64,000 bases of DNA from Candidatus Poribacteria bacterium (GCA_965197475.1 CBDANF010000002.1:640001-704000); one strand, 5' to 3'; positions 9,528 to 62,305 are shown, numbered from the stretch's first letter. Notes: generated by a model from the letters alone, not told the origin. Translations and numbers: made by a program.

Positions 9528-9601
<74 letters not shown>

Positions 9602-39854: not shown

Positions 39855-42800
39855 ATGAAAAAGAGACTGTTAATCATACTGAGTTTGTTGTTAGTTTCTA
39901 CTACTTTCCTACCGAACGGTTTTGCGCAAGACTTCAACCGATGGGGTTTACCTGAAGGTGCAATAGCACGTTTGGGTAAAGGGTGGATAACGGATATGGC
40001 GTTTTCACCTGACAGAAACCAACTCGCAGTGGCGTGTTCTATCGGTATATGGCTTTACAATGTGCGCACTGGCACCGAGGAAGCCTTCCTAAAGGGACAT
40101 ACAGAACTGGTCAATTCGGTTGCTTATTCTCCAGATGGGAAAATCCTTGCAAGTGGTAGTAATGATTGGACGATTCGAATTTGGGATGTGGATAAACGAA
40201 AGCATATTAAGACACTTGAAGGTCATACGGGTAAGGTTAATTCTGTAGCGTATTCGCAGGATGGAGAGACCATTGTAAGTGGAAGTGATGATGGAATTCG
40301 GGTTTGGAATGTTGAAAACTGGAATGATAAGATACTTTATAGAAGTGAGAATGCTGGCATAGTTAACATGATGTATTCACCTGATGAAAAAACACTTACC
40401 AGTTTAAGTAAAAACGGCAAAATAGAATCATGGGATTTAACAAGTGGTGAGAAGCAATGGACTATATTAGGGTATAAAAAATCAAGAAAACTCAAATCAC
40501 TGCTACAGAATGTTATTAAATTAAGTTCATATTCACTTGATGGTAAGACATTTGCCAATTGGTCTGGTGTAGAAATGCGTTTGTATAACGTAGTCAAAGG
40601 TAATTTGGAACTTCTCTTTAAAAAATCTGAAATATCTGTTTATTCGTTAGCATTTTCTCCAAATGGCAGCACAATTGTCACTGGAAGTGATGATGGTACA
40701 ATTAGTATATGGAATACGAAGAATGGAGAGCATAAACGAACTCTTCCTGGACATTCAGGTATGGTGACATCTGTGGCATATTCCCCGGACGGTAACATTG
40801 TCGCCAGTGCAAGTTTAGATGGGACGATTCGTCTGTGGGGTGCAGTGGGCGGATTGCCAAAACGAACTTTTACGGGACATACCCGTAATTTCGATCTCCT
40901 TGCATATTCGCCAAACGGGAAAACACTTGCAAGCAGGACCAAGAACGGTAACATTTTTGTATGGGATGCCAAGACATTTAAATACAAGTTTACACTTGCT
41001 GTCCATACAAATTACAAAGATGTTCTCCGGACTGCTGAAAGGCGTAATAGGGGGACCAATACCGAAAGAATAAACGTTCCACTTGCCTATTCTCCGGATG
41101 GGACTACACTTGCAACTGCAGATATGAACAATACCATACGTTTATGGGACACAGAAAACGGTAAACTTAAACTGACTTTTAAGGCAAAAAATGATGAAGA
41201 ACAACCGCCCGATCAGAATAATCGTGTTCGCCGTCCATATACTATCACCTCGTTAGCATATTCTATAGATGGAAAGACACTTGTGGGTGGTAGTAGAGAT
41301 GGTAAGATTCAATTCTGGGACCTTGAACGTGAAGGGCATCAACAAACGTTTGCAGAGCAGAGATTTCCTGTAATTTTCTTAGGGTATCCCTTGAATGATA
41401 GGATAATTACAAGCGAGATGGTTTCAGAAATAAATATTTGGGATGTTCCGAAACAACAACTTATCCGAACAATTAACATACAACAAATAAGGGGTGGAAG
41501 GGGCGGCATAAATTCCATTTCATTTTCTCCAGATGGCAAGACGGTTGCAGATGCAAATGATGATAATAAAATATTTCTTTGGAATACTGAAACTGGAACA
41601 CTTCAACAAAAAATTTCTGTACATACAGATAAGGTTTCTTCAATTGCTTATTCACCAGACGGTAGTACGCTTGCAAGTGCAGGTGATGATAATTACATTC
41701 GTTTGTGGGATGCGGGGACTGGACAGTATAAGCGGACACTTACCGGACATTTGGGCAGTGTCACTTCAGTCGCCTTTTCTCCTGACGGGAAAACATTAGC
41801 AAGCACAAGCGATGACGGGACGATTTTGCTGTGGGATATTGCACATGTAAAGCAGGGCAATGAATCAAAACCCGCACATGAAAAATGGACAGATATATCG
41901 CAATGGAATTTGCCGGACGAGGCATCAGCACGGCTTGGAAAAGGTTTAGTAAAAGATATTGCGTATTCACCAGACGGTAACCACTTAGCAGTGGCAAGCA
42001 GTATAGGCACATGGATCTATGATATTCGCACGGGTGCCGAACGCGCCTTGTTCCCAGGACCTATGGCATCAATTGAGCAGATATCATATTCACCTGATGG
42101 TAGAATACTTGCGGGGAGAAATTCTCGTGAGATTTATTCGCTTGATGCAGTAACCGGCAAATATTTGCATACTATATCTTTGAATTCAGTCCATTCTGGT
42201 TCTGGACGTAGGACATTTATGTATTCACGTGATGGAAGCAAGCTTGTAAGTTGGGGGCATGGTGGTAGTGTACAATTGTGGGATGCCATAACTGGTCAAC
42301 ACAGACACACAATTGAGGGGACGAGTAATAGTTATTGTTTTGCGTTTTCTCCAGATGGTTCAACGATCGCATACAGCATACGCGCTATGCCAGAAATCAG
42401 CAATAAAGTGCATCTGTGGGATGGGACTACTTCAAAACACAAGAAAACTTTAACCGGACACAAGCATGGGGTTGAATCCATTATATGGGCACCAAATGGA
42501 AAAACCATAGCAAGTCTAAGTAAGCCAAATGGTTGGTCGCCCGGTTCAAGTAAAATAGATATCCAATTGTGGGATGCAGAAACAGGCAATCTTAAACACA
42601 CACTGACTTATGATGAATATGTCAGTTTAGTTACATATTCTCCTGATGGTAAGACCTTAGCTGTTGGATCAGATATGCTTATTTACTTATATGATGTTTT
42701 AAGTGGAAAACTCAAACATAAACTTTTGGGGTATGCCCCATTTGTGTTTTCACCAGATGGAAAAACAATTGCAGTTGATGGTTATATCAACACTATCAGT

Positions 42801-43838
42801 TTGTGGGATGCAGTATCTGGCAGACCCTTGCAGGCGTTCAATGGACCATTAGCAGTCACTTCACTACTATACTCACCTGACGGCACCACGCTCACAGGTG
42901 CGAATGAACACAGTATGGTTTGTGTTTGGGATGTAGACACTGCAAAACTAAAACATACTTTTGAGCATTCTGGTGATATCAGAGCTTTGGCATATTCCCC
43001 AGATAGGAAGACATTGGCATCTGGTGGGAGTGACAGTATGATCCGTCTGTGGGATGTCGCTTCAAGGACCCAAAAACTAAAATTGAATGGACCCGACTAT
43101 ATTGAGACAATGACATATTCACCTGATGGGACTACAATAGCAGCTAATGGTGAGTATAACACAGTCCTATTATTGGATGTATCAAGTGGAAACCAAAAAC
43201 AGAAATTTAAACTTGATATGCCGCATCATATTGTCCGCTCAATTGCGTATTCCCCCGATGGGAAGACATTAGCCACCTCAGGACCAGAAAATACAATTGA
43301 ATTGTGGGATGTAATGACAGGAACACTTAAAAAAATACTTACTGGACATACCAAATATGTGCGGTCGGTAGCCTATTCACCAGACGGTAAAACAATAGCG
43401 AGTGGAAGTTCAGACACAAATATTCGATTGTGGGATGCATCCACAGGCGAGCATAAACTTACGCTATCTAATAATACGCATGCTGGGTCTAAAGTGGTGT
43501 TTTCCCCAGATGGTCAGACGTTAGCCAGTACGGGTGATCACAGCAAAATTCATTTGTGGGATTTAGAGACAGGACAACTCAAATCTATACTCAAACACGG
43601 TGCAAATTCTGTAGCATATTCCCCAGATGGTGTGATATTAGCAAGTAGTGCAGGAGGTTCCATTCATTTATGGAATCCACATACTGGTAAACTGAAAAAG
43701 GTATTTTACGGACATTTTAATTATCACAATGTGAATTCGTTAGTTTTTTCACCAGATGGAAAAACGCTTGCAAGCGGTAGTAGTGATGGAACAATCCTAA
43801 TGTGGGATATAACAGAATTCAAAAATACAACTGATTAG
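39855..43838 (+). CDS. Large secreted WD40 repeat protein built from two tandem modules
   Basis: Signal peptide; more than 20 YSPDG/WD repeats; leader WxLPxxAxARLGKG occurs twice. Confidence 0.92.
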   Translation: MKKRLLIILSLLLVSTTFLPNGFAQDFNRWGLPEGAIARLGKGWITDMAFSPDRNQLAVACSIGIWLYNVRTGTEEAFLKGHTELVNSVAYSPDGKILASGSNDWTIRIWDVDKRKHIKTLEGHTGKVNSVAYSQDGETIVSGSDDGIRVWNVENWNDKILYRSENAGIVNMMYSPDEKTLTSLSKNGKIESWDLTSGEKQWTILGYKKSRKLKSLLQNVIKLSSYSLDGKTFANWSGVEMRLYNVVKGNLELLFKKSEISVYSLAFSPNGSTIVTGSDDGTISIWNTKNGEHKRTLPGHSGMVTSVAYSPDGNIVASASLDGTIRLWGAVGGLPKRTFTGHTRNFDLLAYSPNGKTLASRTKNGNIFVWDAKTFKYKFTLAVHTNYKDVLRTAERRNRGTNTERINVPLAYSPDGTTLATADMNNTIRLWDTENGKLKLTFKAKNDEEQPPDQNNRVRRPYTITSLAYSIDGKTLVGGSRDGKIQFWDLEREGHQQTFAEQRFPVIFLGYPLNDRIITSEMVSEINIWDVPKQQLIRTINIQQIRGGRGGINSISFSPDGKTVADANDDNKIFLWNTETGTLQQKISVHTDKVSSIAYSPDGSTLASAGDDNYIRLWDAGTGQYKRTLTGHLGSVTSVAFSPDGKTLASTSDDGTILLWDIAHVKQGNESKPAHEKWTDISQWNLPDEASARLGKGLVKDIAYSPDGNHLAVASSIGTWIYDIRTGAERALFPGPMASIEQISYSPDGRILAGRNSREIYSLDAVTGKYLHTISLNSVHSGSGRRTFMYSRDGSKLVSWGHGGSVQLWDAITGQHRHTIEGTSNSYCFAFSPDGSTIAYSIRAMPEISNKVHLWDGTTSKHKKTLTGHKHGVESIIWAPNGKTIASLSKPNGWSPGSSKIDIQLWDAETGNLKHTLTYDEYVSLVTYSPDGKTLAVGSDMLIYLYDVLSGKLKHKLLGYAPFVFSPDGKTIAVDGYINTISLWDAVSGRPLQAFNGPLAVTSLLYSPDGTTLTGANEHSMVCVWDVDTAKLKHTFEHSGDIRALAYSPDRKTLASGGSDSMIRLWDVASRTQKLKLNGPDYIETMTYSPDGTTIAANGEYNTVLLLDVSSGNQKQKFKLDMPHHIVRSIAYSPDGKTLATSGPENTIELWDVMTGTLKKILTGHTKYVRSVAYSPDGKTIASGSSDTNIRLWDASTGEHKLTLSNNTHAGSKVVFSPDGQTLASTGDHSKIHLWDLETGQLKSILKHGANSVAYSPDGVILASSAGGSIHLWNPHTGKLKKVFYGHFNYHNVNSLVFSPDGKTLASGSSDGTILMWDITEFKNTTD

Positions 43839-46014: not shown

Positions 46015-46326
46015 TTGGATAGCCAAACAGTTCTTAGCAAACACTTCATCAAACAGAAACTCTTAGACAATCGGGATACACTGAAAAAGTATGGTGTCAA
46101 ACAGATTGGGTTGTCCGGATCCTACGTGAACGGGACTGCACATGCCTCAAGTGACATTGATCTACTTGTTGAATTAGAAAGGTTGACTTTTCACGACTAT
46201 ATGGGATTGACTCTTTACCTTGAAGATCTGTTTGAGAAAAAGGTTGATCTTGTCACCGCTAAATCGATTAAACCGCACCTGAAACCACATATAGAAAAAG
46301 AGGTGGAATATGTCACGGGCCTATGA
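46015..46326 (+). CDS. Minimal nucleotidyltransferase (MNT) antitoxin
   Basis: GSY...SDIDLLV, KVDLV; overlaps the HEPN gene. Confidence 0.88.
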   Translation: MDSQTVLSKHFIKQKLLDNRDTLKKYGVKQIGLSGSYVNGTAHASSDIDLLVELERLTFHDYMGLTLYLEDLFEKKVDLVTAKSIKPHLKPHIEKEVEYVTGL

Positions 46327-46627
46327 CGTATATTTCCAAGATATAATAGAAGCGATCAACCGTATTGAGTCGTATGTTCAAAGCACTACTCGCTTCCAGT
46401 TTGAAATCGATCGGATGCGATATGATGCAGTCGTCCGTAACCTTGAGATAATAGGTGAAGCAGTCAAGCGGATTCCCGACTTGATTCGGGAGAGTTACCC
46501 AAGTGTTGCTTGGCGAAAGATAGCAGGTTTAAGAGACAGACTGATTCATGCATACTTTGATATTGACACCGACATTATCTGGGATGTGGTGCAATCGGAA
46601 CTCCCGATTTTGAAGAGCGAAGTTTAG
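46310..46627 (+). CDS. HEPN (DUF86) RNase toxin
   Basis: DAVVRNLEIIGEA, RDRLIHAY (Rx4H), IIWDVV. Confidence 0.88.
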   Translation: MSRAYDVYFQDIIEAINRIESYVQSTTRFQFEIDRMRYDAVVRNLEIIGEAVKRIPDLIRESYPSVAWRKIAGLRDRLIHAYFDIDTDIIWDVVQSELPILKSEV

Positions 46628-46937
46628 CGTATTCTTGATGAGCATAGCAGATAATTATATTGATTTGTAAACAAGGTTTGTAACCACACCATCCAAAAGA
46701 AAACCCTCTTATCCGATTGATTAATATCTTGCATCCGTCTTCACTTTTCCAGTGTTATTTATGCTTTTACACTAAGTCACTTCATTAATCTCCTAACTTC
46801 AAACAATTAAGAATATCTCAATAAGATTTGAGTGTTCAATAAAATTAATTCCAAAACCGAAATTTTCTGTCATTTTTTTAAACCGTTTTCCCAAATTTCC
46901 CCCTCTTTATAACTGAAATCTAATTGGGAACCTACTC

Positions 46938-49900
46938 ATGCACTACAATTTTGTCACTCCAAACAATCTGACAGATGAAGAACTGGTTCGACTTGTCCAA
47001 AGTCGCGATGAAGCAGCATTCGCGGAATTAATGTCTCGTTATAGTCCACGAATCTGGAACGTGGTTGTCGAAAATTCAAGACAACGTCGGGATGCGGAAG
47101 AGATTCTTATGGACATCTGGATGGTTGTATGGGATAACATTATCGGTTTACGAAAAGCGGAAAGTTTTAGCGGATGGTTACGGCGAATAGCCTACACCGC
47201 TTGCAACAGATACTACGGTTCTGGATCGCATCGGCATAGTGAAATTATACTGAGTTACGAAGATTTAGCTTTTCAGATTGATAGAGAAGCTGAGCAGCGT
47301 TTTCAGGATGTGAGGCTTCGATCAGATGCAAGAGAGGCTGTGCATAACCTTCCACAAAGGGTCCGTTCTGTAGCAATATTGTACTATCTCGAACTATGGA
47401 ATGTTAAAGAAATTGCAGAAGAACTCAACTTACCGATCGGCACAGTCAAGACGAAGCTAAGTGAAATAAGACACCTTTTACGCCAAGAGTTTGAGGTGGA
47501 ACCTACAAGGGGGAAAACGATGTCACAGGAACAGGAAAAATCTGAAAGTTTACGAACCAAATTTAAAGTTATAGGAATCGGTGGAGCGGGTTGCAATGTT
47601 GTTAAACACATGATAGAAGACGGTTTGGCAGACATTGAATTCTGTGCTGTTGATACAGACACGGAAACACTTAGTGCATGCCACGGTGCAACACAAGTGC
47701 AAATAGGTGTCAACACCGTTCAAGGACAAAGCACGGACGGGAGTCTGGAACTGGGAAGAAGAGCTGCTGCGGAAAGCATAGATGAACTTCGATCTATCGT
47801 CTCAGATGCCAAGATGGTTATCGTTATCGCTGGCATGGGTGGTGGAACGGGCACTGGTGTCGCTCCGGTGGTTGCATCTCTGGCACGAGAACATGGCGCA
47901 TTAACAGTTTGCTTTGTAACCCGTCCGTTCGATTCTGAAGGAGAACACCGTTCAGAACAGGCAGGATACGGAGTGCGGGAACTGCAAAGCGGTACACACC
48001 CACGGGCAGATGCTCTCATCGTTGTGCCTAACCAACGGATATTGGACTTGATCGACCGAGAATTACCGATGCAAGAAGCGTTTCAACAAAGCGATGAAAT
48101 CCTGCTACACGGTATTAAAAACATTACAGATCTCCTTGTAGAAATGGGCGAAATAAGCATTAACTTTGATGATATTCAGGAAACGCTGCGCGACCAAGGG
48201 ACTGTCCTGATGGGTATCGGAAAAGCAACAGGTGAAAATAGGGCAACAATTGCAGCAAAGAACGCTATCTCCTCACCCTTGCTTGAAGGGAACAGCATTG
48301 CCGGTGCTGTTGGAATGATTATAAATATCGCTTCTCCACCAGATTTCACTATGCAGGAATTGGACCAAGCCATGAAAGTAATTTGTAAAACATGTGAAAA
48401 TGCCCAACCCCTCTTCGGATTAATCTTCAAAGATGAAATGGGAGCTAGCGATGAAGTCTTGGTGACTGTAATGGCAAGCGGGTTTGAGTCACAAAGTGAT
48501 CAGACACCACCGATTTCTTCCAGCAAGGGCGGCGACACTCCCAGACAAGACAGTGTTATTTCACCTTCAACCGCTTCAGAATTTGTTCATCTACACAATC
48601 ACAGTGAATATAGCCTGTTGGACGGTGCGTGCCGAATCCCGGATATGGTGCAGTGGGCAATTGAGAACAGTTCGCCTGCTGTCGCACTTACCGACCACGG
48701 TAATATGTTCGGTGCATGGGAATTTTACAACACTGCCAAAGCAGCAGGTGTGAACCCAATTGTTGGATGTGAAGTGTATGTCGAAACAGAAAACACAAGA
48801 ACAGATGGGAATTGCCAATGTTCACCGTCCCATCTCACCCTGCTCGCAGAGGACGCTACAGGCTATCACAATCTCTTAGAATTAACATCACTCGGATATA
48901 CGCAAGGTTTCCACAGTAAACCCCGTATCAATCTGGAAATGCTGCGTGAAAATCATGGTGGTATAATAGCATTGACAGGATGCATCAACGGATTAGTCCC
49001 AAAGTTAATCTGTTCTGATCAAAGAGACGAAGCGGTTCGCAACCTCTTGCAATTGAGAGACATCATGGGAGCAGACAACCTATTTGTCGAAATTCAAAAC
49101 CACTATATTGATGAGGAATTGGCAGCATATCCGGTGATGGTGGAATTTGCAAATGAGTTCAATCTCCCTATTGTCGGCACAAACGATTGTCACTATCTCC
49201 GAAAATCCGACCACCGTATGCACGAGATCCTTCTCTGTATCCAGAGAAAGAAAACCGTCAATGACCCTGAACGGATGCGGTTTGACAATCATTTCTATTT
49301 TAAGAATGTTGACGAAATGCGCGTGGTGCTTAAGGATTATCCACCCGAAGCGATCATCAATACTGTTGAAATTGCCAACCGGTGTAATCTGAGACTTGAT
49401 TACGGCAAAAGTATGATACCTGAATTTGAAGTGCCAGAAGGACATACCAACGACAGTTATCTGAAAGAACTTTGCTATGACGGTTTGCGACAAAAATATG
49501 GGGGACATCTTTCCGAACCGATTCGCAAGCGGTTGGAGTACGAACTTGACATTATCCAACAAACCGGCCACGCTAGCTATTTCCTAATTGTTGCGGATTA
49601 CGTCAGCTATGCGAACAAACAGGGATATCTACTCTCTGCTCGTGGTTCTGCTGCTGGTAGTCTTGTGCTTTATGCGCTCAGTGTAATTAATTTCAATCCG
49701 ATGGAACATGGATGTCTGTTTGAAAGATTTTTAAACCTTGACAGGATGAATCCTCCAGACATTGATATAGATTTCGCTGATCATGCACGTGATGATGTGA
49801 TCAATTACCTTGTGAGAAAATACGGTCATGATTCTGTCGGTAAAGTTGCTACCTTTGCTACGTTAGGGGCAAAAGCTGCTATCAAAGATGTCGGACGTGC

Positions 49901-51224
49901 CCTTGAAATCCCTCTTGATAACGTCGCTAAGTTGACAGGATTAATTCCATCCATACCTGGCATCACGCTTGACGAAGCATTGGAAAAGACACCAGATTTT
50001 CAGGAACTTGCGGAACTCCCTGAAAATAGGGAATTGATAGAGCTTAGCAAGGCGGTAGAAGGTATGAAACGGCATGTTTCATGTCATGCCTCTGCAATCG
50101 TGGTTTCACACGGTTCTCTGATGAATTATGTACCGCTATTCAAGGATAGAAATGGACAAGTTGCAACACAGTTTGAAGGAAAAACGGTTGAAGATGTCGG
50201 CATCATTAAATTTGATACGCTTGGTGTCCGAAGTCTTTCTGAGGTTGCTGACTGTCTCAATATGATTCAAGAAAATCATGGTCGCAAGATTGCACTTGAA
50301 GATATTCCGCTTGACGATGAAAAGACCTATTCACTCATTAGTAAAGGGTTGATTGCTGGGCTATTCCAACTCGAAACTTCTCCCGGTATGTATAAGTTGG
50401 TTATAGAACTCAAGCCGGAAAACTTTGCGGTATTTTCCGCAATTCCCGCACTCTATCGCCCTGGTCCATTGGAAAGTGGTATAATGCAGCAGTTTATTGA
50501 TCGGAAAAACGGATTACAACCTATTGCGTATATACATCCCTCGTTTGAAAATGCGCTCAAAAGCACTTTCGGTGTCTGTATCTATCAGGAACAAGTGATG
50601 CAGATTGCATGTGATACAGCAGGTTTCACACTTGGTGAGGCAGATACCCTCCGCGGGGCAATGGGAAAAAAGAAAGTAGATGTAATCAAAGAACAACGAT
50701 CCAAATTCATTGATGGAGCGGTAGAAAATGGAATTCAAAAAAATGAGGCTGGAGAGGTTTTTGAACATCTCATATCTATAGGTAGATATGCCTTCAACAA
50801 ATCGCACTCCGTCGCTTATTCTATGTTAGCCTACCGAATGGCGTATCTGAAAACGCACTATCCCCATGAATTTATGGCGGCGATAATGAGTGGAGAGGCA
50901 GCGGATAAAGAAAAGATTAAGCGTTACCGAGCTGAATGTGTGAAACTTGCTGACTTCCTCGGTGTAGAAATCAATCTTATTCCGTTAGATATCAACAGCA
51001 GTGAGAAAAACTTTGTTGTGGAAGGCAACGATATCCGTTTCGGACTTGTTGCTGTTGAACGTATTAGTGATGCAGCAATAGATTCAATTCTAACGGAAAG
51101 AAATCGTGACGGTTTATTTACATCACTCCAAGATTTTCGTGATCGTTTGGATTCAACAGAGGTGGATGAAACCGTTATTGAAAACCTCATCAAGTCCGGT
51201 GCATTTAACACTCTTTCTGAATAA
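46938..51224 (+). CDS. Fusion protein: ECF sigma-70 factor + FtsZ + DNA polymerase III alpha (DnaE) core
   Basis: aa 1-185 DAEEILMDIW, FSGWLRRIA, EIAEELNLPIGTVKTKL; aa about 208-516 VIGIGGAG, GGGTGTG; aa about 547-1428 HLHNHSEYSLLDG, RGSAAGS, PDIDIDF, KFDTLG, FNKSH; one uninterrupted frame. Confidence 0.9.
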   Translation: MHYNFVTPNNLTDEELVRLVQSRDEAAFAELMSRYSPRIWNVVVENSRQRRDAEEILMDIWMVVWDNIIGLRKAESFSGWLRRIAYTACNRYYGSGSHRHSEIILSYEDLAFQIDREAEQRFQDVRLRSDAREAVHNLPQRVRSVAILYYLELWNVKEIAEELNLPIGTVKTKLSEIRHLLRQEFEVEPTRGKTMSQEQEKSESLRTKFKVIGIGGAGCNVVKHMIEDGLADIEFCAVDTDTETLSACHGATQVQIGVNTVQGQSTDGSLELGRRAAAESIDELRSIVSDAKMVIVIAGMGGGTGTGVAPVVASLAREHGALTVCFVTRPFDSEGEHRSEQAGYGVRELQSGTHPRADALIVVPNQRILDLIDRELPMQEAFQQSDEILLHGIKNITDLLVEMGEISINFDDIQETLRDQGTVLMGIGKATGENRATIAAKNAISSPLLEGNSIAGAVGMIINIASPPDFTMQELDQAMKVICKTCENAQPLFGLIFKDEMGASDEVLVTVMASGFESQSDQTPPISSSKGGDTPRQDSVISPSTASEFVHLHNHSEYSLLDGACRIPDMVQWAIENSSPAVALTDHGNMFGAWEFYNTAKAAGVNPIVGCEVYVETENTRTDGNCQCSPSHLTLLAEDATGYHNLLELTSLGYTQGFHSKPRINLEMLRENHGGIIALTGCINGLVPKLICSDQRDEAVRNLLQLRDIMGADNLFVEIQNHYIDEELAAYPVMVEFANEFNLPIVGTNDCHYLRKSDHRMHEILLCIQRKKTVNDPERMRFDNHFYFKNVDEMRVVLKDYPPEAIINTVEIANRCNLRLDYGKSMIPEFEVPEGHTNDSYLKELCYDGLRQKYGGHLSEPIRKRLEYELDIIQQTGHASYFLIVADYVSYANKQGYLLSARGSAAGSLVLYALSVINFNPMEHGCLFERFLNLDRMNPPDIDIDFADHARDDVINYLVRKYGHDSVGKVATFATLGAKAAIKDVGRALEIPLDNVAKLTGLIPSIPGITLDEALEKTPDFQELAELPENRELIELSKAVEGMKRHVSCHASAIVVSHGSLMNYVPLFKDRNGQVATQFEGKTVEDVGIIKFDTLGVRSLSEVADCLNMIQENHGRKIALEDIPLDDEKTYSLISKGLIAGLFQLETSPGMYKLVIELKPENFAVFSAIPALYRPGPLESGIMQQFIDRKNGLQPIAYIHPSFENALKSTFGVCIYQEQVMQIACDTAGFTLGEADTLRGAMGKKKVDVIKEQRSKFIDGAVENGIQKNEAGEVFEHLISIGRYAFNKSHSVAYSMLAYRMAYLKTHYPHEFMAAIMSGEAADKEKIKRYRAECVKLADFLGVEINLIPLDINSSEKNFVVEGNDIRFGLVAVERISDAAIDSILTERNRDGLFTSLQDFRDRLDSTEVDETVIENLIKSGAFNTLSE

Positions 51225-51608: not shown

Positions 51609-52265
51609 ATGAACATTCAGAGAATTAGGAAAGTGACACAGTTAATTCACCGTATTACACAAAAAGACGTTAATTTTCCGGTATCAATAAATGCATTTTT
51701 AAAAACAGATACACCTGAAGTGATATGGGCGCGTGGGAATTTAGACCTATTATCTAATAAAAGCGATGCCTCAAAAGAGGACTTATGGGCACTATTCTGT
51801 TCCAGTAAATGTCCTGCCGAGATTATCTTGAAAACACACGATTTAGTTCAGGAATTCAAGGCAGAAGGTGTCTCAACAATCGGTGGATTTCATTCACCTG
51901 TTGAACAAGAGTGCTTACGCGTCTTATTGCGTGGCTCACAACCGATCTTATTATGTCCCGCACGAAGTATTGAAAACATGCAATTGAAGTCGGGGTGGCG
52001 AAAGGCTTATTTTGATAGAAGGCTCCTGATCTTATCTATATTTTGTGAAAAAAGAATTTCCGCAGAACGAGCGTACAAACGTAACCACTTCGTTGCAGCA
52101 CTCGCAAGTAAGGTATTAATTGCACATGCCGCTGAAGACAGTAAAACTTTGGAATTTACACAAACAATATTGAAATGGGGAAAACCTGTTTTCACTTTTA
52201 ATTCATCATCAAATAAAGCACTTATTCAACTCGGGGTAAAACCTTATTCAAGGGATTTACCCTAA
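51609..52265 (+). CDS. Short DprA/Smf-like Rossmann-fold protein
   Basis: P.VIWARGNLDLL, GGFHSPVE, RNHFVAALASKVLIAHA, GKPVF. Confidence 0.8.
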   Translation: MNIQRIRKVTQLIHRITQKDVNFPVSINAFLKTDTPEVIWARGNLDLLSNKSDASKEDLWALFCSSKCPAEIILKTHDLVQEFKAEGVSTIGGFHSPVEQECLRVLLRGSQPILLCPARSIENMQLKSGWRKAYFDRRLLILSIFCEKRISAERAYKRNHFVAALASKVLIAHAAEDSKTLEFTQTILKWGKPVFTFNSSSNKALIQLGVKPYSRDLP

Positions 52266-52299: not shown

Positions 52300-55200
52300 A
52301 TGCCACGAATCTTTGATAACATAGACCAACCGCTCCTCCAAGCACTGCAGCAAACCCTCGAATCCTCTACCCATGCAGACTTCTGTGTCGGATATTTTAA
52401 CCTCAGAGGATGGAGAAGACTCGCAAATTACATTGAAAATTGGCAAGGTGGCGATGGCGAATGCTGCCGTCTACTCGTAGGAATGCAGCGACTCCCCGAT
52501 GAAGAACTACGTCACACCATGCGTATTTTTAAAGATACAGACAGAATTGATAACCAGACAGCCAACCGTTTAAAACGAAAGTTAGCAGAAGAATTTCGCG
52601 AGCAATTAACTGTTGGCATACCTACCCGTGATGACGAAATCGGTCTAAGACAGTTAGCACGCCAACTTCGGCACGGAAAGGTAAAGGTAAAATTATATCT
52701 TCAACATCCCCTTCATGCCAAACTTTATCTACTTTACCGCCAAGACCTCGCCGCACCGATTGTCGGTTACCTCGGCAGCAGCAACCTCACCCTTGCCGGA
52801 CTTTCACAGCAAGGCGAACTCAACGTTGATGTGCTCGATTCAGACGCATGCCAAAAGTTAGAGGTGTGGTTTGAAGACAGGTGGAGCGACAAGCGGTGCA
52901 TTGATATATCTAAGGAATTAGTCGAAATTATTGACGAGAGTTGGGCGCGTGAAGAACTCATTCCACCATATCACATCTACATTAAAATGGCGTATCACCT
53001 ATCCCAGGAAGCAAGGGCGGGGTTGAACGAATTTCGGATTCCACGCGAATTTGAAGATACGCTCTTTGATTTTCAAACTGCTGCTGTTAAAATCGCAGCA
53101 CATCATCTTAACAGACGCGGCGGTGTTCTTATCGGAGACGTTGTGGGTCTCGGCAAAACGCTGATGGGAACAGCACTTGCACGCATACAGGAAGACGATT
53201 ACGACCTTGAAACACTTATTATTTGTCCGAAGAATCTCGTCAGCATGTGGGAATTTTACCGTGACGAATACCGCTTGCGCGCAAGGGTGCTTTCAATAAG
53301 TCGAGTTCAGAACGTGTTGCCGACGCTTCGACGTTATCGACTCGTGATGATTGATGAAAGCCACAACCTCAGAAACCGTGAAGGCAAACGTTACCGCGCG
53401 ATTCAAGAATATATCCATGAAAATGAGAGCAAGGTTATCTTACTCTCTGCAACCCCTTACAACAAAACCTTCCTTGATCTCTCAAACCAACTTCGCCTCT
53501 TTGTTGATGAAACCGAAGGTATTGGAATCCGACCAGAACAATACATCAAAGCGTTAGGCGGCGAAATCGGTTTTAATCGCGAACACCAAAGTGGTATTCG
53601 CACCCTTGCTGCGTTTGAACATAGTGAATTCATTGACGATTGGCGTGAATTGATGCGGCGTTATCTTGTCCGCAGAACCCGTAGTTTTATCATGCAAAAC
53701 TATGCTGAAGTAGACCCCGACACGGAACGAAAATTCCTTTCTTTTGCCGATGGAACGCGGTCCTACTTCCCAACACGTGTACCAAAAACAGTTAAGTTTA
53801 CAATTGATGACCAAGACCCTGATGACACCTATGCACAGTTATACTCTTCTTACGTCGTTAACATAATAAGCAAACTCAAACTGGCTCGATACGGGCTTGC
53901 AAACTATATTGACATATCGGATTCTGAACCACTGACAGAAGCTGAAGAGGAACAATTGCAAGACCTTTCACGTGGTGGACAACGGTTGATGGGCTTCTGT
54001 CGCACAAACCTTTTCAAACGACTTGAAAGTAGTGGTAAAGCATTCCTACAATCTGTTGATCGGCATATCCTACGAAACTATATCTTTCTCCATGCAATAG
54101 AGAACAACGAATCATTCCCGATCGGTGGTCTTGATGCTTCAATGCTTGATTCCCGTTTCAGTGATAAAGACTCCGATGATGTTAACCTAATTTCAGGTAT
54201 CTCAGATGATGAAGATGATGAGTTGATTGATACGAGCGATTCTCAATCCAACTTGTACACTACTGAAAACTATAGACAACGCGCTGCCCGTATTTATCAA
54301 CTTTACTTGACCCAGTATAAAACTCGGTTTAAGTGGATTCGTTCAGATCTATTTCTGCCGATACTTAAGGATGAGCTCACCAAAGATGCAAACGCACTGA
54401 TTCAAATCTTGCAACAATATGGCGAATGGGATGTTAAAAAAGATGCAAAACTCAACGCACTTGAGGAACTATTAACACAAATACATCCAGACACAAAAGT
54501 CTTGGTTTTCACGCAATTTGCAGATACTGTAAAATATTTGACAGGCGAACTTAAAGTACGAGGTATCACGCAAATAGAAAAAGCAACCGGTGATTCAGCA
54601 AATCCAACCGAATTGGCATGCCGATTCAGTCCTATCAGCAATAATAGAGAAGGTATCCCCACAGAAGATATATTGCGCGTTCTCATCAGCACAGATGTAC
54701 TAAGTGAAGGGCAGAATTTACAGGACTGTGCAATTGTCGTAAACTATGATCTGCCGTGGGCAATTATACGGTTAGTCCAACGTGCTGGTCGCGTTGACCG
54801 TATTGGTCAAACGGCGGAAGAAATATTGTGCTACTCATTTTTACCAGCGGAAGGTGTTGAACGTATTATCAATCTACGCGGACGCGTCCGAGCACGTCTG
54901 CAACAGAACGCTGAAGTGGTAGGCACAGATGAGGCATTTTTTGAGGATGACGGTGAAGATGGTAACACAGCAATCATTAACCTTTATAATGAGGAGGCAG
55001 GTTTGCTTGACGATGATATGGATAACGACGTTGATCTCGCCTCTCACGCCTATCAGATTTGGAAAAATGCTATTACCGAAGACCCTGACTTAGAAAAAAT
55101 TATTACAAAACTCCCCTCTGTTGTCTATTCAACTAAATCACATACGCCTACTGATACGCAACCGATAGGTGCACTGGTGTATATTCGAACTGGAGAAGAT

Positions 55201-55686
55201 AATGATGCGCTTGCATGGATTGATAAAAACGGAGAAAGTGTGACAGAATCACAGTTCACCATTCTACAAGCTGCAGCGTGCGAACCGGAGACAGAAGCAC
55301 TTCAACCCCTTGAGAAACACCACGACCTCGTGCAAGAAGCCGCGAAACTCATCGTATCTGAGGAGCGATCAGTTGGTGGGCAACTCGGCAGACCGTCGGG
55401 AGCGCGGTTTCGCACTTATGAAAGGTTGAAGGATTACGCCTCAGAGGTTGAAGGCACGCTATTTGATACGCCAGAACTCAAACAGGTTATAGAAAATGTC
55501 TATCGTTACCCCTTACGTCCAGTAGCAACCGATACCCTCAACCGTCAACTCCGCATCGGTATTACTAACGAGAACCTTGTTAAGTTAGTGATTGATTTAT
55601 GGAATGATGGTCGACTTTGTATTGTTGAAGAAAAACGCGAAATGCGAGAACCCAAGATCGTCTGTTCATTAGGGCTTTCTTCCTAA
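52300..55686 (+). CDS. PLD-nuclease domain + SNF2-family helicase (restriction-type subunit)
   Basis: VGYF, HAKLYL, GSSNLT; DVVGLGKT, DESHN, SATP, SEGQNLQ, QRAGRVDRIGQ. Confidence 0.9.
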   Translation: MPRIFDNIDQPLLQALQQTLESSTHADFCVGYFNLRGWRRLANYIENWQGGDGECCRLLVGMQRLPDEELRHTMRIFKDTDRIDNQTANRLKRKLAEEFREQLTVGIPTRDDEIGLRQLARQLRHGKVKVKLYLQHPLHAKLYLLYRQDLAAPIVGYLGSSNLTLAGLSQQGELNVDVLDSDACQKLEVWFEDRWSDKRCIDISKELVEIIDESWAREELIPPYHIYIKMAYHLSQEARAGLNEFRIPREFEDTLFDFQTAAVKIAAHHLNRRGGVLIGDVVGLGKTLMGTALARIQEDDYDLETLIICPKNLVSMWEFYRDEYRLRARVLSISRVQNVLPTLRRYRLVMIDESHNLRNREGKRYRAIQEYIHENESKVILLSATPYNKTFLDLSNQLRLFVDETEGIGIRPEQYIKALGGEIGFNREHQSGIRTLAAFEHSEFIDDWRELMRRYLVRRTRSFIMQNYAEVDPDTERKFLSFADGTRSYFPTRVPKTVKFTIDDQDPDDTYAQLYSSYVVNIISKLKLARYGLANYIDISDSEPLTEAEEEQLQDLSRGGQRLMGFCRTNLFKRLESSGKAFLQSVDRHILRNYIFLHAIENNESFPIGGLDASMLDSRFSDKDSDDVNLISGISDDEDDELIDTSDSQSNLYTTENYRQRAARIYQLYLTQYKTRFKWIRSDLFLPILKDELTKDANALIQILQQYGEWDVKKDAKLNALEELLTQIHPDTKVLVFTQFADTVKYLTGELKVRGITQIEKATGDSANPTELACRFSPISNNREGIPTEDILRVLISTDVLSEGQNLQDCAIVVNYDLPWAIIRLVQRAGRVDRIGQTAEEILCYSFLPAEGVERIINLRGRVRARLQQNAEVVGTDEAFFEDDGEDGNTAIINLYNEEAGLLDDDMDNDVDLASHAYQIWKNAITEDPDLEKIITKLPSVVYSTKSHTPTDTQPIGALVYIRTGEDNDALAWIDKNGESVTESQFTILQAAACEPETEALQPLEKHHDLVQEAAKLIVSEERSVGGQLGRPSGARFRTYERLKDYASEVEGTLFDTPELKQVIENVYRYPLRPVATDTLNRQLRIGITNENLVKLVIDLWNDGRLCIVEEKREMREPKIVCSLGLSS

Positions 55687-56917: not shown

Positions 56918-59900
56918 ATGCAAATTGACTTTGAACAAACGCGCGAATACCTCAAAGAATTCAAATTTGAAGACCTTTTTATTGAGGAACTCGGTTGGGA
57001 TAACCCTCCTGAAACGTTGAACGTTACTATAGACGAAACCGAATATGTTCTTACTGCAATTGCCCACAAACGCGGCATGGTTGTCTACGAATGTCCACAA
57101 ACTACATCTCAGGAAAACATTCCAGTCTACGCTACCCGCCGCAAGATTCAAAAGCAAGTCGCCAAATCCACCCACGAGAACTTTATCATCTACACCAACG
57201 CAGAGAAAACCACACAAATTTGGCAGTGGGTTAAAAGAGAACAGGGAAAACCTGATGCATGCCGTGAACACCGTTACGAAATCTGGCAGTCAGGTGATTC
57301 TCTGATTCAGAAGTTGCAAAACATTGCCTTTAGTTTTGAAGAGGAAGAGGAAATTTCTCTCTTTAGCGTGATTGAACGCGTCGGAACAGCCTTTTACGCT
57401 GAACGGGTCACCAAAAAGTTTTATGACCGTTTCAAGAAGGAGCATGACGCATTCCTCGAATTTCTCAATGGGATTCCAGATGAAGAGATGCAAAAATGGT
57501 ATGTTTCTGTGATGCTCAACCGCCTCATGTTTATCTACTTTATCCAAAAGAAAGGTTTTCTGAATAGTGATATAAACTATCTGCAAACGAAGCTAAGAGA
57601 AACACAACAGAACGGTACGGATCTATACTACAAAGAATTCCTGTGCCCGCTATTCTTTGAAGGGTTTGCGAAGCCTGAAAACGAAAGAGATAGGGATATT
57701 TCAGACCAACTCGGTACGATCCCTTATCTCAACGGCGGTATCTTCCAAAAACATCAACTTGAGACGCTTCACGGTGAAAACATTGAGATTCCCGACACAG
57801 CATTTAAGAAACTGTTTAGTTTCTTTGAGCAATACCAGTGGCACCTTGATGATCGTCAACTGCGGAACGATAACGAAATCAACCCTGATGTGCTCGGATA
57901 CATCTTTGAAAAATACATCAACCAGAAACAGATGGGCGCATACTATACCAAAGAGGACATCACGGAGTACATCAGCAAAAACACCATCATTCCGTTTTTA
58001 TTTGACGCTGCGAAGAAATCATGTAAAATTGCATTTGAAGGTGATGCATCTGTCTGGAAACTACTACAAGAAGACCCAGACAGGTATATCTATGATGCAG
58101 TCAAAAAAGGTGTTAAATTAGATTTGCCAGAGGATATTACTGCTGGAATTGACGATGTCTCCAAGCGGACCGAATGGAACGAACGCGCCCCCGAAGGAGT
58201 TGATGAAATCGCCCTACCGACAGAAATCTGGCGGGAGGTTGTTGCACGCAGACAACGGCATGAACAAATCCGATCCAAACTCGCAAACGGTAAGATAGAC
58301 AACATCAACGATCTGATTACTTATAACCTCAATATCCGTCAATTCGCACAGGATGTCATCGAAAATTGTGAGGGACCTGAACTGCTCCGCGCTTTCTGGA
58401 AAGCCATCACTGAAGTAACAGTCCTTGACCCGACCTGCGGCTCCGGGGCGTTCTTATTTGCCGCACTGAACATCCTTGAACCACTCTATGAGGCATGCCT
58501 TGATCGGATGCAAGTTTTCCTTGACGAACTCATAACGGTTTCCCCTCTGACAAGGGGGGCAGGGGGGTTAGAGAATATTCCTAAAAAACCGCACGCCCTG
58601 AAATACAAAGACTTCCGCCAAACCCTTGACCGCATTGCGGAACACCCTAACCGCGATTATTTTGTCCTCAAATCTATTATCATCAACAATCTTTACGGTG
58701 TAGACATTATGGAGGAGGCAATTGAGATTTGCAAGCTGCGCCTTTTCCTCAAAATGGTGGCACAGATTGAGGATGTCCAACAGATTGAACCGTTGCCGGA
58801 TATTGACTTTAACATTCAGGCAGGCAATACCCTTGTCGGCTTTGCAACTGATGACGAGATAGAGTCTGCATTTTCCGGTAGGCTTGATTTTGAAAATGCA
58901 ATGGAGCGTATTATAGAAAAAGCTGAGGATATTAAGGAGCGATTCACTCTATTTCGCCAACAGCAAACGGAATTAGGCGGTACAGTAACACAAGCTGACA
59001 AACAGGTGTTACAGAGTGAAATTGGGACATTGGGAGACGAACTCAATGAATACCTTGCTGACATATATGATGTTGATATGAACGAACTGTCTGATTACGA
59101 AGAGTGGCTAAATTCACACAAACCTTTCCACTGGTTTATTGCGTTTTACGGTATTCTTCAAGATGGCGGGTTTGATGTGATTATTGGTAATCCACCGTAT
59201 CTTGAATTAAGAGAGGTAGACTACAGGCCACCTACAAGCCTAATTAGTTATGAAACTAAGACGATCCACGCAATGTGTATGGATCGTAGTTTACAGCTTT
59301 TAATTCAACACGGCTGCATGAGCATGATTGTACCTTCAGCTTTAGTTTCTACACAGCGAATGCGAATTGTCCAAAGTCTTTTGGAAAAAAGTCGTAATGT
59401 TTGGTACGCCAACTATTCATGGCGTCCGGGTAAACTGTTTGATACAGTAAATCGTGCCCTGACTATTTTTGTTGTTGCTCCTTCTAATCAGGGACAGACT
59501 TTTTCTACGAACTATCAGAAATGGACTTCCGAAAATAGGGATTTACTGATGCGGGGTGTTGATTATGCTGAAATTCCGCGTAATAGAACAGCTTTTTGGG
59601 CACCGAAGTTGGGAACGGAAATTGAAAACGTTTTACTCGAAAAATTTATGAGGGTAAAAGCTGTCTTAAAGTTGTTCATGGCAAAAAGTGGAAATCGAGT
59701 TTACTACCGTAATTCAGGCGGATTATATTGGAAGGTATTTACAGACTTTCCTCCTGCGTTCAAAGTCAACGGAGAAACTGGACACTCTACACGTGAGACC
59801 TCTTTCTCATTAGCACAAAGAGGAATGACAAAATCATCTATTGCTATCCTAAGCAGCAACGTTTTTTGGTGGTGGTATACAGTTACTTCGGATTGTCGTT

Positions 59901-60196
59901 CACTCAACCCATCTGATGTCCAAAATTTTCCTGTTTATGAATCTGCACTCAATGATCCGCAACTCATTGAACTCGGAGAGATGTATTTAGAAGATCTACA
60001 ACGTAATAGTATTATGCAGGTTCGCGTTCAAAAACAGACTGGACGCACTGAAACGCAATCGTTCAAAATTCAGAAATCCAAGCACATCATAAATGAAATT
60101 GACCGTGTGCTTGCCGAACACTACGGCTTTACCGACGAGGAATTAGACTTTATCATTAACTACGACATCAAGTATCGTATGGGTTTAGGGAATTGA
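56918..60196 (+). CDS. Large N6-adenine DNA methyltransferase with TRD (Eco57I/type IIG-like)
   Basis: PYLNGGIF, LGYIFE, GAYYT, VLDPTCGSGAFL, YGVD, GNTL, FDVIIGNPPY. Confidence 0.9.
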   Translation: MQIDFEQTREYLKEFKFEDLFIEELGWDNPPETLNVTIDETEYVLTAIAHKRGMVVYECPQTTSQENIPVYATRRKIQKQVAKSTHENFIIYTNAEKTTQIWQWVKREQGKPDACREHRYEIWQSGDSLIQKLQNIAFSFEEEEEISLFSVIERVGTAFYAERVTKKFYDRFKKEHDAFLEFLNGIPDEEMQKWYVSVMLNRLMFIYFIQKKGFLNSDINYLQTKLRETQQNGTDLYYKEFLCPLFFEGFAKPENERDRDISDQLGTIPYLNGGIFQKHQLETLHGENIEIPDTAFKKLFSFFEQYQWHLDDRQLRNDNEINPDVLGYIFEKYINQKQMGAYYTKEDITEYISKNTIIPFLFDAAKKSCKIAFEGDASVWKLLQEDPDRYIYDAVKKGVKLDLPEDITAGIDDVSKRTEWNERAPEGVDEIALPTEIWREVVARRQRHEQIRSKLANGKIDNINDLITYNLNIRQFAQDVIENCEGPELLRAFWKAITEVTVLDPTCGSGAFLFAALNILEPLYEACLDRMQVFLDELITVSPLTRGAGGLENIPKKPHALKYKDFRQTLDRIAEHPNRDYFVLKSIIINNLYGVDIMEEAIEICKLRLFLKMVAQIEDVQQIEPLPDIDFNIQAGNTLVGFATDDEIESAFSGRLDFENAMERIIEKAEDIKERFTLFRQQQTELGGTVTQADKQVLQSEIGTLGDELNEYLADIYDVDMNELSDYEEWLNSHKPFHWFIAFYGILQDGGFDVIIGNPPYLELREVDYRPPTSLISYETKTIHAMCMDRSLQLLIQHGCMSMIVPSALVSTQRMRIVQSLLEKSRNVWYANYSWRPGKLFDTVNRALTIFVVAPSNQGQTFSTNYQKWTSENRDLLMRGVDYAEIPRNRTAFWAPKLGTEIENVLLEKFMRVKAVLKLFMAKSGNRVYYRNSGGLYWKVFTDFPPAFKVNGETGHSTRETSFSLAQRGMTKSSIAILSSNVFWWWYTVTSDCRSLNPSDVQNFPVYESALNDPQLIELGEMYLEDLQRNSIMQVRVQKQTGRTETQSFKIQKSKHIINEIDRVLAEHYGFTDEELDFIINYDIKYRMGLGN

Positions 60197-61567: not shown

Positions 61568-62305
61568 ATGCAAGGACGACCAAATATCCTCCAACAAACA
61601 CTCGAAACGGCAATCACGTTTCTCTATCCTGCACAATGCCGAGTCTGTGAAAAACCGCTTGGACTTGAATCTGTGCCTTATATGTGCGATGCATGCTGGA
61701 ATGATATGCCGTTAATTGAACCGCCTTGGTGTGAAATGTGCGGCACCCCAAATACTGAAGATGTCTGTGATGAGTGTGCGACCACGCCGCCGCCCTTCGG
61801 AAAATTACGCACGATTGCTTTTTATGAAGTAGCACTTCAGCAGGCAATACACCTCTTTAAGTTTGAAAAACGAACAACGCTTGCAAAACCGCTTGCCCAG
61901 TTGATGATTAGACATATTTCTAATGATTTTAACATGGCAGATTATGACTTTATCCTGCCGATTCCGATTCATAAAAAGCGATTGCGAGAACGAGGCTTTA
62001 ATCAAGCCACCCTACTTGCAAACGGAATTGCCAAAACCAAAAACATACCAGTTGTAACAGATGTTCTCGTTCGACACAAGAACACATCACCGCAGAGCAG
62101 TTTGGATAGAGAAGCACGCCAAACTAACATTGTTGGTGCTTTTGAACTACAGAGAAAAGAAGTTGTGCAGGACAAGCGTATACTTGTTCTTGACGATGTC
62201 TTCACCACAGGTGCTACCGTTCGCGAGGCAGTAAAAGTCTTATGGAATGCCGACCCGGTTGAGATTGATGTGTTAACTTTAGCACGGGCATTAGACCCTG
62301 AATGA
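61568..62305 (+). CDS. comF: ComF family protein (double zinc ribbon + PRTase)
   Basis: Four CxxC motifs, RGFNQA, LDDVFTTGAT. Confidence 0.88.
   Translation: MQGRPNILQQTLETAITFLYPAQCRVCEKPLGLESVPYMCDACWNDMPLIEPPWCEMCGTPNTEDVCDECATTPPPFGKLRTIAFYEVALQQAIHLFKFEKRTTLAKPLAQLMIRHISNDFNMADYDFILPIPIHKKRLRERGFNQATLLANGIAKTKNIPVVTDVLVRHKNTSPQSSLDREARQTNIVGAFELQRKEVVQDKRILVLDDVFTTGATVREAVKVLWNADPVEIDVLTLARALDPE

Follow-up and report, generated by a model that had tools for sequence, protein, structure and literature searches.

What would be gained by building a transcription factor, a division protein and a replicative polymerase into one polypeptide? This question is raised by a gene of Candidatus Poribacteria that lies in a stretch of 64,000 nucleotides (GCA_965197475.1, CBDANF010000002.1:640001-704000; hereafter, the window) and encodes a sigma factor of the extracytoplasmic function (ECF) type joined to paralogues of FtsZ and of the core of DnaE, the alpha subunit of DNA polymerase III (FtsZ' and DnaE' below). 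An earlier note, drawn from the sequence alone, had read the gene as a triple fusion and had proposed either that the FtsZ and DnaE copies are integrated decoys, which control the sigma domain when phage inhibitors or toxins bind, or that the protein couples the state of division and replication to transcription. It suggested looking for reads across the joints, for the architecture in related genomes, for separate canonical ftsZ and dnaE genes and for neutral ratios of nonsynonymous to synonymous substitution rates (dN/dS), as well as building trees of both parts and listing other ECF fusions in the genome. We report that the fusion gene is genuine and not an assembly artefact. The reading to which we lean, without granting it an even chance, is that it forms a self-driving ECF cassette whose FtsZ' extension may be both its product and a feedback sensor coupling expression to FtsZ assembly.

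The uninterrupted frame of 1428 codons that had been read at positions 46938-51224 was recovered exactly on re-examination (Table 1). The order of its modules held as well, with the sigma regions followed by an FtsZ domain with its GGGTGTG motif, a Ser/Pro linker and a PHP and polymerase part with PDIDID; what had been called the DnaE core was found to be C-terminally truncated. The NCBIfam sigma70-ECF model TIGR02937 matched residues 27-184 with 64.5 bits (cut-off, 42.9), and Pfam Sigma70_r4_2 matched residues 132-178 with 33.1 bits (cut-off, 25.7). Sigma70_r2 (residues 31-93) scored 21.3 bits against a cut-off of 24 and was above the cut-off in relatives. The FtsZ part (Tubulin, 210-372; FtsZ_C, 421-517) reached 298.6 bits with TIGR00065 (cut-off, 295.2). 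The DnaE part (PHP, 551-722; DNA_pol3_alpha, 840-1096; DNA_pol3_finger, 1101-1265; HHH_6, 1345-1427) reached 1040 bits with NF004226 (cut-off, 1002), covering profile positions 3-885 of 1146, and its PHP motif HLHNHSEYS is present in the frame. The DnaE2 model NF004225 gave 587.1 bits, below its cut-off of 939, indicating that the fused DnaE is not DnaE2/ImuC.

Both copies lack the ends of their canonical counterparts. FtsZ' has neither the long linker nor the terminal peptide and continues directly into the Ser/Pro linker and the PHP domain; DnaE' ends at the position of canonical residue 884 of 1178 in the long class of members and of residues 803-811 in the short class, and the canonical QMNLF clamp-type motif lies about 30 residues past the end of the fused copy. 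The sequences linking FtsZ' to DnaE' vary across members, and the joint contains no Met. Cores of E. coli alpha formed by residues 1-910/917 are active. DnaE' resembles a DnaE1 core in having PHP, palm, thumb, fingers and (HhH)2 elements and in aligning to E. coli alpha residues 5-891, an extent near that of the crystallised residues 1-910/917 (PDB 2hnh, 2hqa; compare Thermus aquaticus alpha, 2hpi); replicative DnaE continues into an internal clamp-binding-type motif, an OB fold and a C-terminal (tau-binding) domain, none of which DnaE' reaches. Like canonical FtsZ, FtsZ' has full GTPase and C-terminal domains, residues 208-517 aligning to solved cores (PDB 4m8i, 3vo8, 2vam). Unlike canonical FtsZ, it is a second copy outside the dcw/ftsA context, lacks a linker and an FtsA-binding-type peptide, and shows an approximately 4 times faster dN/dS.

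The source genome (G000; 5.70 Mb in three contigs, with the window at G000:C2:640001-704000) has an estimated contamination of 6.97%. Canonical ftsZ is located on contig C3 beside ftsA, and its product has a long linker followed by a terminal peptide (...WDIPAFLRVQ...); a full-length canonical dnaE (1178 amino acids [aa]) is on the same contig. The fused copies are therefore not the only ones in the genome, and DnaE' is not the copy used for replication. As had been claimed, the fusion lies outside the dcw context; it is the canonical copy that adjoins ftsA. The fused and canonical proteins share 59% identity for FtsZ and 71% for DnaE, so the gene is not a mis-join of those two genes, a candidate explanation that was also rejected because the architecture recurs in other genomes. 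A database search with residues 1-560 returned 216 clusters at E<=0.001; all of the 120 clusters listed (52-100% identity, many on contigs of 4-6.7 Mb) contain sigma, tubulin and at least one DnaE-type domain. Their source names, where given, are Candidatus Poribacteria, with annotation as DNA polymerase III alpha or FtsZ. Logan contigs from three public DNA runs (two samples) covered the gene with no joints or indels, and one of them bridged the FtsZ/DnaE linker with 0 differences. None of the short Logan contigs listed spanned the joint from sigma-4 to FtsZ, which was tiled by overlapping unitigs. These runs lend weak independent support, as they come from one study that possibly includes the source sample. 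An assembly chimera, for which the contamination of the three-contig assembly and the merely tiled sigma/FtsZ joint could speak, or a decaying pseudogene has in our estimate a negligible probability: 57 species genomes, of which many consist of a single contig (4-6.7 Mb), share the architecture, the FtsZ/DnaE joint is bridged, and purifying selection across all modules (see below) argues against decay.

The distribution was surveyed in 176 species genomes of the phylum, which belong to 11 families (f1, 112 genomes; f2 to f11, 64 genomes). The full-length triple fusion was listed in 57 genomes, all of family f1 (genera g1, g5 and g6), and four more copies were truncated by the end of a contig. 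With a query that crosses the sigma/FtsZ joint, matches at E<=1e-70 were obtained in 97 of the 112 f1 genomes; the best match in the 64 other genomes (2.5e-42) was at the level of canonical FtsZ. Thus, the fusion family is confined to one family-level clade of Candidatus Poribacteria.

The genes fall into three size classes. Class A (sigma-FtsZ-DnaE) comprises 115 near-full-length proteins, 60 of them in a long form of 1420-1442 aa that includes HHH_6 and 55 in a short form of 1342-1388 aa without it. Class B (551-615 aa) consists of sigma and full FtsZ; two of its genes are longer, at 657 and 700 aa, and retain 33 and 69 residues of the start of PHP. Class C (approximately 405 aa) has the sigma factor and the FtsZ GTPase domain alone. 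Classes A and B share one chromosomal slot, with permease c0 at most two open reading frames (ORFs) upstream in 32 of 32 loci, where it belongs to a conserved same-strand block (AP_endonuc_2-like, enolase-superfamily, SDR, TatD, an unassigned gene and the BPD_transp_2 permease). Downstream, all 18 g6 loci have a convergent block including SBP, M23 peptidase, CorC and PhyH, and the region is variable in genus g1. Two proteins depart from the three classes: P0086 (1743 aa; L047:7956-13187) extends the triple fusion by a further approximately 340 aa, a tail that has no Pfam match, and in P0122 (502 aa), which may be cut at a contig end, a sigma module 84% identical to that of G000 is joined straight to PHP, without FtsZ.

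Trees were obtained by quick searches on a panel of 33 genomes plus G000, with support from the Shimodaira-Hasegawa-like approximate likelihood ratio test (SH-aLRT) only. In the 80-row FtsZ tree, the 45 non-canonical modules (classes A, B and C, two solo N-domains and one DnaN-FtsZ protein) formed one clade (SH-aLRT, 98) nested within the f1 clade (SH-aLRT, 99), with class B modules interspersed among those of class A. In the 59-row DnaE tree, the 21 fused modules grouped as a single clade (100) nested within f1 canonical DnaE; the split inside this clade mirrored that between g1 plus g5 and g6. Together, the trees and the PHP remnants in class B point to a single triple-fusion origin before the genera diverged. 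The FtsZ and DnaE parts each go back to a single duplication, of the ftsZ and of the dnaE of the lineage itself, which preceded the g1/g6 split; the DnaE part was later lost repeatedly, leaving sigma-FtsZ genes in the same slot.

All three modules are under purifying selection. Median dN/dS values (Nei-Gojobori; six genome pairs) were 0.10 for sigma, 0.23 for FtsZ, approximately 0.3 for the linker and 0.11 for DnaE, in comparison to 0.06 each for the FtsZ core and the DnaE encoded by the canonical genes of these genomes; neutrality is thereby rejected for every module. Among DnaE columns with at least 95% conservation, 332 were identical in 26 canonical and 21 fused proteins, 0 were switched and 52 were conserved in canonical proteins only; for FtsZ, 73 conserved columns were identical in fused and canonical proteins and 3 were switched. 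The PDIDID aspartates were retained in 114, 109 and 115 of the 115 class A members, the PHP motif in 114-115, each GGGTGTG position in 94-115, and the T7-loop aspartates in 108 and 113; the FtsZ T4 loop was also retained. Residue 409 in the T7 loop of the G000 copy (codon 48162-48164) is Asn (SINFDD instead of the usual N-x-D-F-x-D), as in 6 of 115 members, which might lower GTP hydrolysis by this copy.

The sigma module belongs to a narrow subfamily. Scanning 1.84 billion cluster representatives gave 23 matches at E<=1e-30 (at least 49% identity), followed by generic ECF sigmas at approximately 30%. The extensions found within this subfamily are FtsZ-DnaE, FtsZ, the FtsZ N-domain, PHP joined directly (P0122), DnaN (P0135) and WD40 propellers. 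G000 has two further members, a sigma-WD40 protein and a sigma factor with an extension of no assigned family. In the paralogue at C3:3778884-3780518, the extension has no Pfam match at E<=1e-4, and a "CBM9-like" label is therefore not upheld. The inventory of ECF fusions in G000 comprised 44 ECF-type sigma frames, of which 25 have at least 400 aa. Twenty of these 25 carry a membrane-helix-like segment just after sigma, and no such segment was found in the triple fusion or its two G000 siblings. The long sigma ORFs of G000 often form tandem arrays (for example C3:2767728-2784285, C3:400322-409851 and C3:625336-639723), and their sampled extensions contain WD40 propellers, BNR/Sortilin-like repeats, CarboxypepD_reg and C-type lectin domains.

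A putative ECF-type promoter precedes the fusion gene. The dyad TTTAAACC-N18-CTCTTTA (T-run-TTAAACC, 18 nucleotides [nt], CTC(T/A)TTA) was present upstream of 40 of 41 class A, B and C genes with invariant 18-nt spacing, the exception, L041, having a TATAAACC variant. A position weight matrix (PWM) scan of the whole G000 genome scored 61.4 bits at the fusion and 37.9 bits at the sigma-WD40 gene, with no other site above 22 bits and 0 in the control. A relaxed dyad gave four matches in G000 (control, 1), three of which were at the three subfamily sigma genes. In five other complete genomes, 12 of 15 matches of the pattern (control, 4) were located 14-42 nt upstream of subfamily sigma genes. Convincing targets other than sigma genes were not found with the strict pattern, the PWM and three relaxed dyads in G000 or with the pattern in the five genomes; one site each preceded a nucleotide-sugar-dehydrogenase-like ORF in G000 and a MacB/FtsX-like ORF in genome G078. 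No sigma-70-type promoter or intrinsic terminator above shuffled expectation was detected at the locus. With few exceptions, the promoter is thus confined to genes of this sigma subfamily, a co-occurrence from which we infer probable positive autoregulation and cross-regulation among the paralogues. The leader element that follows the promoter, which is also present in the upstream regions of L043-L057, L050, L055 and L068, occurs once in genus g1 and in two to three tandem copies in many g6 genes; it could be a ribosome-binding context or the site of a regulator.

The joint between sigma and FtsZ' retains the marks of a translation start. Met195 is invariant in 131 of 131 aligned proteins, among varying preceding residues, and a Shine-Dalgarno (SD)-like purine block lies 6-12 nt before its codon in 40 of the 40 loci examined. 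Such a block preceded 87 of 905 (9.6%) other in-frame ATGs of the same genes and 37 of 41 annotated main starts; 53.5% would be expected from the same amino acids at the genes' own codon usage. The rule of an SD-like motif followed by Met also held for the two G000 paralogues and for the joint of a sigma-DnaN fusion whose sigma factor belongs to another subfamily (see below). A second product devoid of sigma, FtsZ'-DnaE', is thus probably made from Met195, and the junction has the appearance of a relic, left when a sigma gene and the gene behind it were fused by loss of a stop codon.

AlphaFold2 was run on residues 1-545 with a 37-row alignment. The sigma-2, sigma-4 and FtsZ folds were predicted with confidence, sigma taking the form of two helical bundles; the predicted local distance difference test (pLDDT) score was below 50 at residues 96-124, 188-206 and 517-538, and the predicted template modelling score was 0.59. 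The model suggests an arrangement of beads on a string, with flexible tethers of approximately 20 and 30 residues. These low-confidence linkers, their relaxed dN/dS, the SD motif and ATG retained at the junction, and a DnaE part that comes and goes would fit an operon fusion without mechanistic coupling, in which lost stop codons were tolerated and the modules remained independent. We consider this highly unlikely, since the sigma junction frame is open in 131 of 131 aligned members and in independent siblings (sigma-DnaN, of a different sigma subfamily); a frame kept open in all members and siblings argues that the covalent link is selected.

These features can be assembled into the following scheme for the self-driving cassette. 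A former operon, with the sigma gene followed by one or more downstream genes, would have fused through stop codon loss and would now yield both the full-length sigma-FtsZ'-DnaE' and the free FtsZ'-DnaE'. The sigma module would read its own promoter, establishing positive feedback, and the main output of the circuit would be the fusion protein and its paralogues, because no other promoter of this type is detectable. FtsZ' keeps the motifs for GTP binding and polymerisation, without the tail through which FtsZ is attached to FtsA and the membrane, and is predicted to assemble together with the FtsZ of the cell or with FtsZ' made as a free product. Co-assembly would tether or sequester sigma away from RNA polymerase, tying expression to the state of FtsZ assembly, so that a housekeeping polymer would take the role of an anti-sigma factor. 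DnaE', to judge from its conserved motifs a catalytically competent polymerase/PHP core, would be a cargo independent of the clamp and of tau, dispensable in many species. The proposal that the protein is a regulator linking division and replication to transcription is compatible with this scheme and close to what we regard as the best explanation; the detectable promoter, however, targets only sigma-fusion genes.

Several observations weigh against the self-driving cassette. A purely regulatory role leaves the strictly conserved active site of DnaE' unexplained. The AlphaFold2 model shows no fixed contact between sigma and FtsZ', and any autoinhibition would therefore need tethering or sequestration. 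The T1-loop Gly of canonical FtsZ is Asp in most g6 members (79/115), which might change nucleotide binding. Regarding the internal start, the 40 loci are relatives, so that the SD statistics overstate their independence, and the motif could partly reflect a purine-rich linker that encodes many Arg, Gly, Lys and Glu residues. Recognition of the promoter by the sigma module is deduced from co-occurrence, and another sigma factor could read it; similarly, a regulon was sought by motif scans of six genomes, which weaker sites would escape.

The main rival to the cassette, which we judge unlikely, treats sigma as a mere self-amplifying driver and FtsZ' and DnaE' (together with a clamp copy, DnaN') as a stress-induced alternative module. 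A tail-less FtsZ' would poison or cap the Z-ring and arrest division, and a clamp-independent polymerase would carry out repair-type synthesis, by analogy with the SOS-induced SulA plus DnaE2/ImuABC. It would account for the restriction of detectable promoter targets to the fusion genes, for DnaE' and PHP sites conserved as in an essential enzyme (dN/dS, 0.11), for the missing partner-binding tails of FtsZ' and DnaE', and for an internal start that would free a sigma-less FtsZ'-DnaE'. The class C proteins, which retain a GTPase domain incapable of filament propagation, would also be in line with such a poison, and the recurrent combinations of FtsZ', DnaE' and DnaN' (sigma-DnaN and DnaN-FtsZ) suggest joint work. 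This explanation nevertheless leaves the open frame across the sigma junction of every member without a reason. In addition, other members of the sigma subfamily carry WD40 propellers, which resemble domains for binding or sensing more than they do effectors, the DnaE part was repeatedly lost while the gene stayed, and the error-prone DnaE2 model matched below its cut-off (587 versus 939 bits).

Table 1. Features of the window, with positions counted from its first nucleotide
Feature	Position	Strand	Evidence or remark
sigma-FtsZ-DnaE fusion gene	46938-51224	+	single uninterrupted frame, 1428 aa and a stop codon
ECF sigma module, aa 1-185 (sigma-2 ~13-94, flexible 96-124, sigma-4 ~125-184)	46938-47492	+	Pfam/NCBIfam, AlphaFold2 helices and pLDDT, dN/dS 0.10
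Flexible sigma/FtsZ junction, aa 186-208	47493-47561	+	pLDDT <50 at 188-206; contains the internal SD-like motif and Met195
Internal SD-like AGGGGGA	47508-47514	+	
Invariant Met195 ATG	47520-47522	+	
FtsZ paralogue core (GTPase aa 210-372, C-terminal domain 421-517)	47562-48488	+	without C-terminal tail peptide
Disordered Ser/Pro/Thr/Gly-rich linker, aa 518-548	48489-48581	+	low conservation, dN/dS ~0.3, pLDDT <50 at 517-538
DnaE paralogue core (PHP, palm, fingers, HHH_6)	48582-51221	+	without clamp motif, OB fold and C-terminal domain
Putative ECF-type promoter	46873-46909	+	T-run + TTAAACC (46878-46884), 18-nt spacer (46885-46902), CTCTTTA (46903-46909)
Leader element AATCTAATTGGGAA (AATCTAATTGGG(A/C)A, 14 nt)	46917-46930	+	includes Shine-Dalgarno-like GGGA for the main start
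MNT	46015-46326		PADLOC PDC-S09; upstream of fusion
HepT	46310-46627		upstream of fusion
DprA-like PsyrA/ShosA-type protein	51609-52265		downstream of fusion
HKD(PLD)+Snf2 helicase	52300-55686		downstream of fusion
Type IIG restriction-modification enzyme	56918-60196		1027 bits
PsyrT/ShosT-like protein	61568-62305		~9 kb from its putative PsyrA/ShosA-type partner
WD40-repeat protein, 1327 aa (13 stretches)	39855-43838	+	consists almost wholly of WD40 repeats; PADLOC HEAT-ARM_XIII, 6e-56
Three tRNA genes	9427-9513, 9528-9601, 18832-18903	+, +, -	no other Rfam match in the window at gathering threshold

Phages or toxins are known to target FtsZ and the clamp. In plant nucleotide-binding leucine-rich repeat (NLR) integrated decoys and bacterial guard-type defences, a copy of the target is built into a signalling protein. 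The decoy proposal of the earlier note would apply this principle to the fusion: the FtsZ and DnaE copies, and by extension those of DnaN, would mimic essential proteins targeted by phage or toxin inhibitors, whose binding would free or activate sigma. The neighbourhood in G000 is a true defence island (MNT/HepT, HKD+Snf2, type IIG and PsyrA/T-like genes), in agreement with the description of the gene as lying between a HEPN-MNT pair and a restriction-modification-like cluster; the region downstream of the gene varies across g1, and several paralogous sensors share one sigma type and one promoter. This setting is nonetheless peculiar to G000, whose locus is the only one of 32 to have MNT/HepT inserted after the permease and before the fusion. 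Each of the 18 g6 loci is followed by the conserved non-defence block. The fusion matched 0 families of PADLOC-DB v2 at E<=0.001, though its G000 neighbours did match, and in the motif scans of six genomes no defence gene carried the cassette promoter. Strictly kept catalytic residues would be needless in a decoy, and the slow evolution of the modules (dN/dS, 0.1-0.23) reveals no arms-race diversification. The integrated decoy thus has little support and appears to us decidedly unlikely; unlike the plant and guard-type systems, the fusion has neither a conserved defence context nor a defence-family match and has kept its catalytic sites.

ECF sigmas with regulatory C-terminal extensions, some of which appear to derive from fused anti-sigma factors, are described in passages of PMC8999054. 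The fusion resembles such extended ECF sigmas in having only sigma-2 and sigma-4, no adjacent anti-sigma gene and a soluble extension, and its sibling genes carry WD40 propellers, as ECF57 does. No cognate anti-sigma gene adjoins the fusion, the downstream genes being not conserved or convergent. Unlike known ECF extensions, that of the fusion consists of 1230 aa of FtsZ and DnaE-core paralogues (DnaN in a sibling) that are seemingly enzymatically intact, the internal start is retained, and no contact of the extension with sigma-2 or sigma-4 is predicted. A search of the full-text literature, with supplementary tables outside its scope, revealed no description of sigma-FtsZ, sigma-DnaE or sigma-clamp fusions or of Poribacteria ECF sigmas, in agreement with the assertion that the triple fusion was new. 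FtsZ, tubulin, polymerase III, Poribacteria and WD40 are likewise absent from the main text of the ECF classification papers PMC7826278 and PMC7671368. ECF extensions are thus known as a kind, and an FtsZ plus DnaE or clamp extension is the new part; the sigma-FtsZ-DnaE arrangement itself appears to be undescribed.

If the link is functional, the fusion would be, to our knowledge, the first case of a sigma factor wired physically to copies of the division and replication machineries. It would then provide a direct, testable route by which transcription could follow the state of assembly of FtsZ or of the replisome. A broader generalisation, which is possible and somewhat improbable, is that the family represents a new class of one-component signalling proteins, in which ECF sigmas are tethered to self-assembling housekeeping paralogues (FtsZ polymer or beta-clamp dimer, with the DnaE core as cargo), co-assembly with the divisome or replisome gates sigma, and the output is the sigma-free FtsZ'-DnaE'. 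Transcription would then directly report how the division and replication machines are assembled or, in a decoy variant, their sabotage by phage. The family is large (triple fusion, 216 clusters; sigma-clamp sibling, at least 120 listed clusters), and it is confined to uncultured Poribacteria symbiotic with sponges. The database names "DNA polymerase III subunit alpha" and "cell division protein FtsZ" mask this distinct architecture, and some of the ftsZ and dnaE genes counted in these genomes are non-canonical. With a defined promoter, an internal start and separable modules, each step is tractable in a heterologous host.

FtsZ, DnaE and DnaN paralogues also occur in other combinations. The sigma-DnaN sibling, adjoining class C genes, joins an ECF sigma factor to a complete beta clamp in 575 aa; at least 120 clusters of this family were listed, and each of them has the two sigma regions and all three clamp domains. 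Genus g2, which lacks sigma-FtsZ, has a DnaN-FtsZ fusion of 694 aa (L128:1929-4010 [-], genome G066). This recurrent joining of sigma, FtsZ', DnaE' and DnaN' suggests that they form a functional module.

Sigma-DnaN was found at L074:10997-12724 (-) and in cluster c18 (L069-L077; 568-590 aa), with a sigma module approximately 28% identical to that of the fusion. The Met at its joint is preceded by GGAGG or GGAGA, its neighbours are class C sigma-FtsZ and ABC-2/MacB-type transporter genes, and one source name is Candidatus Poribacteria. G000 itself has no sigma-DnaN; its tandem dnaN-like genes (C3:724402-725514 and 725745-726863 [-]; L176) encode proteins 53% and 60% identical to the sigma-DnaN clamp module. 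In DnaN-FtsZ, a complete clamp is directly joined to a complete FtsZ core, with no sigma and no Met at the joint, and 164 bp downstream lies a gene for a sigma-54 activator (AAA+ plus HTH_8) without an N-terminal sensor domain (L128:689-1765 [-]).

Solo proteins were also detected. FtsZ GTPase-domain proteins are encoded at L129:1766-2437 (+) (224 aa) and L130:1787-2425 (-) (213 aa). Extra DnaE proteins are encoded at L131:2002-4977 (+) (992 aa), L132:1745-5092 (+) (1116 aa), L166:1757-5026 (+) (1090 aa), L133:2031-5585 (-) (1185 aa) and L167:1505-4972 (-) (1156 aa); several of them are C-terminally shortened, and four form their own clade, apart from the fused DnaE. Finally, cluster c21 (L075:5707-7500 [-]; G000:C3:1624454-1626193 [-]) combines an ECF sigma with a conserved soluble extension of approximately 380 aa that has no Pfam match and is 64% identical in the G000 member.

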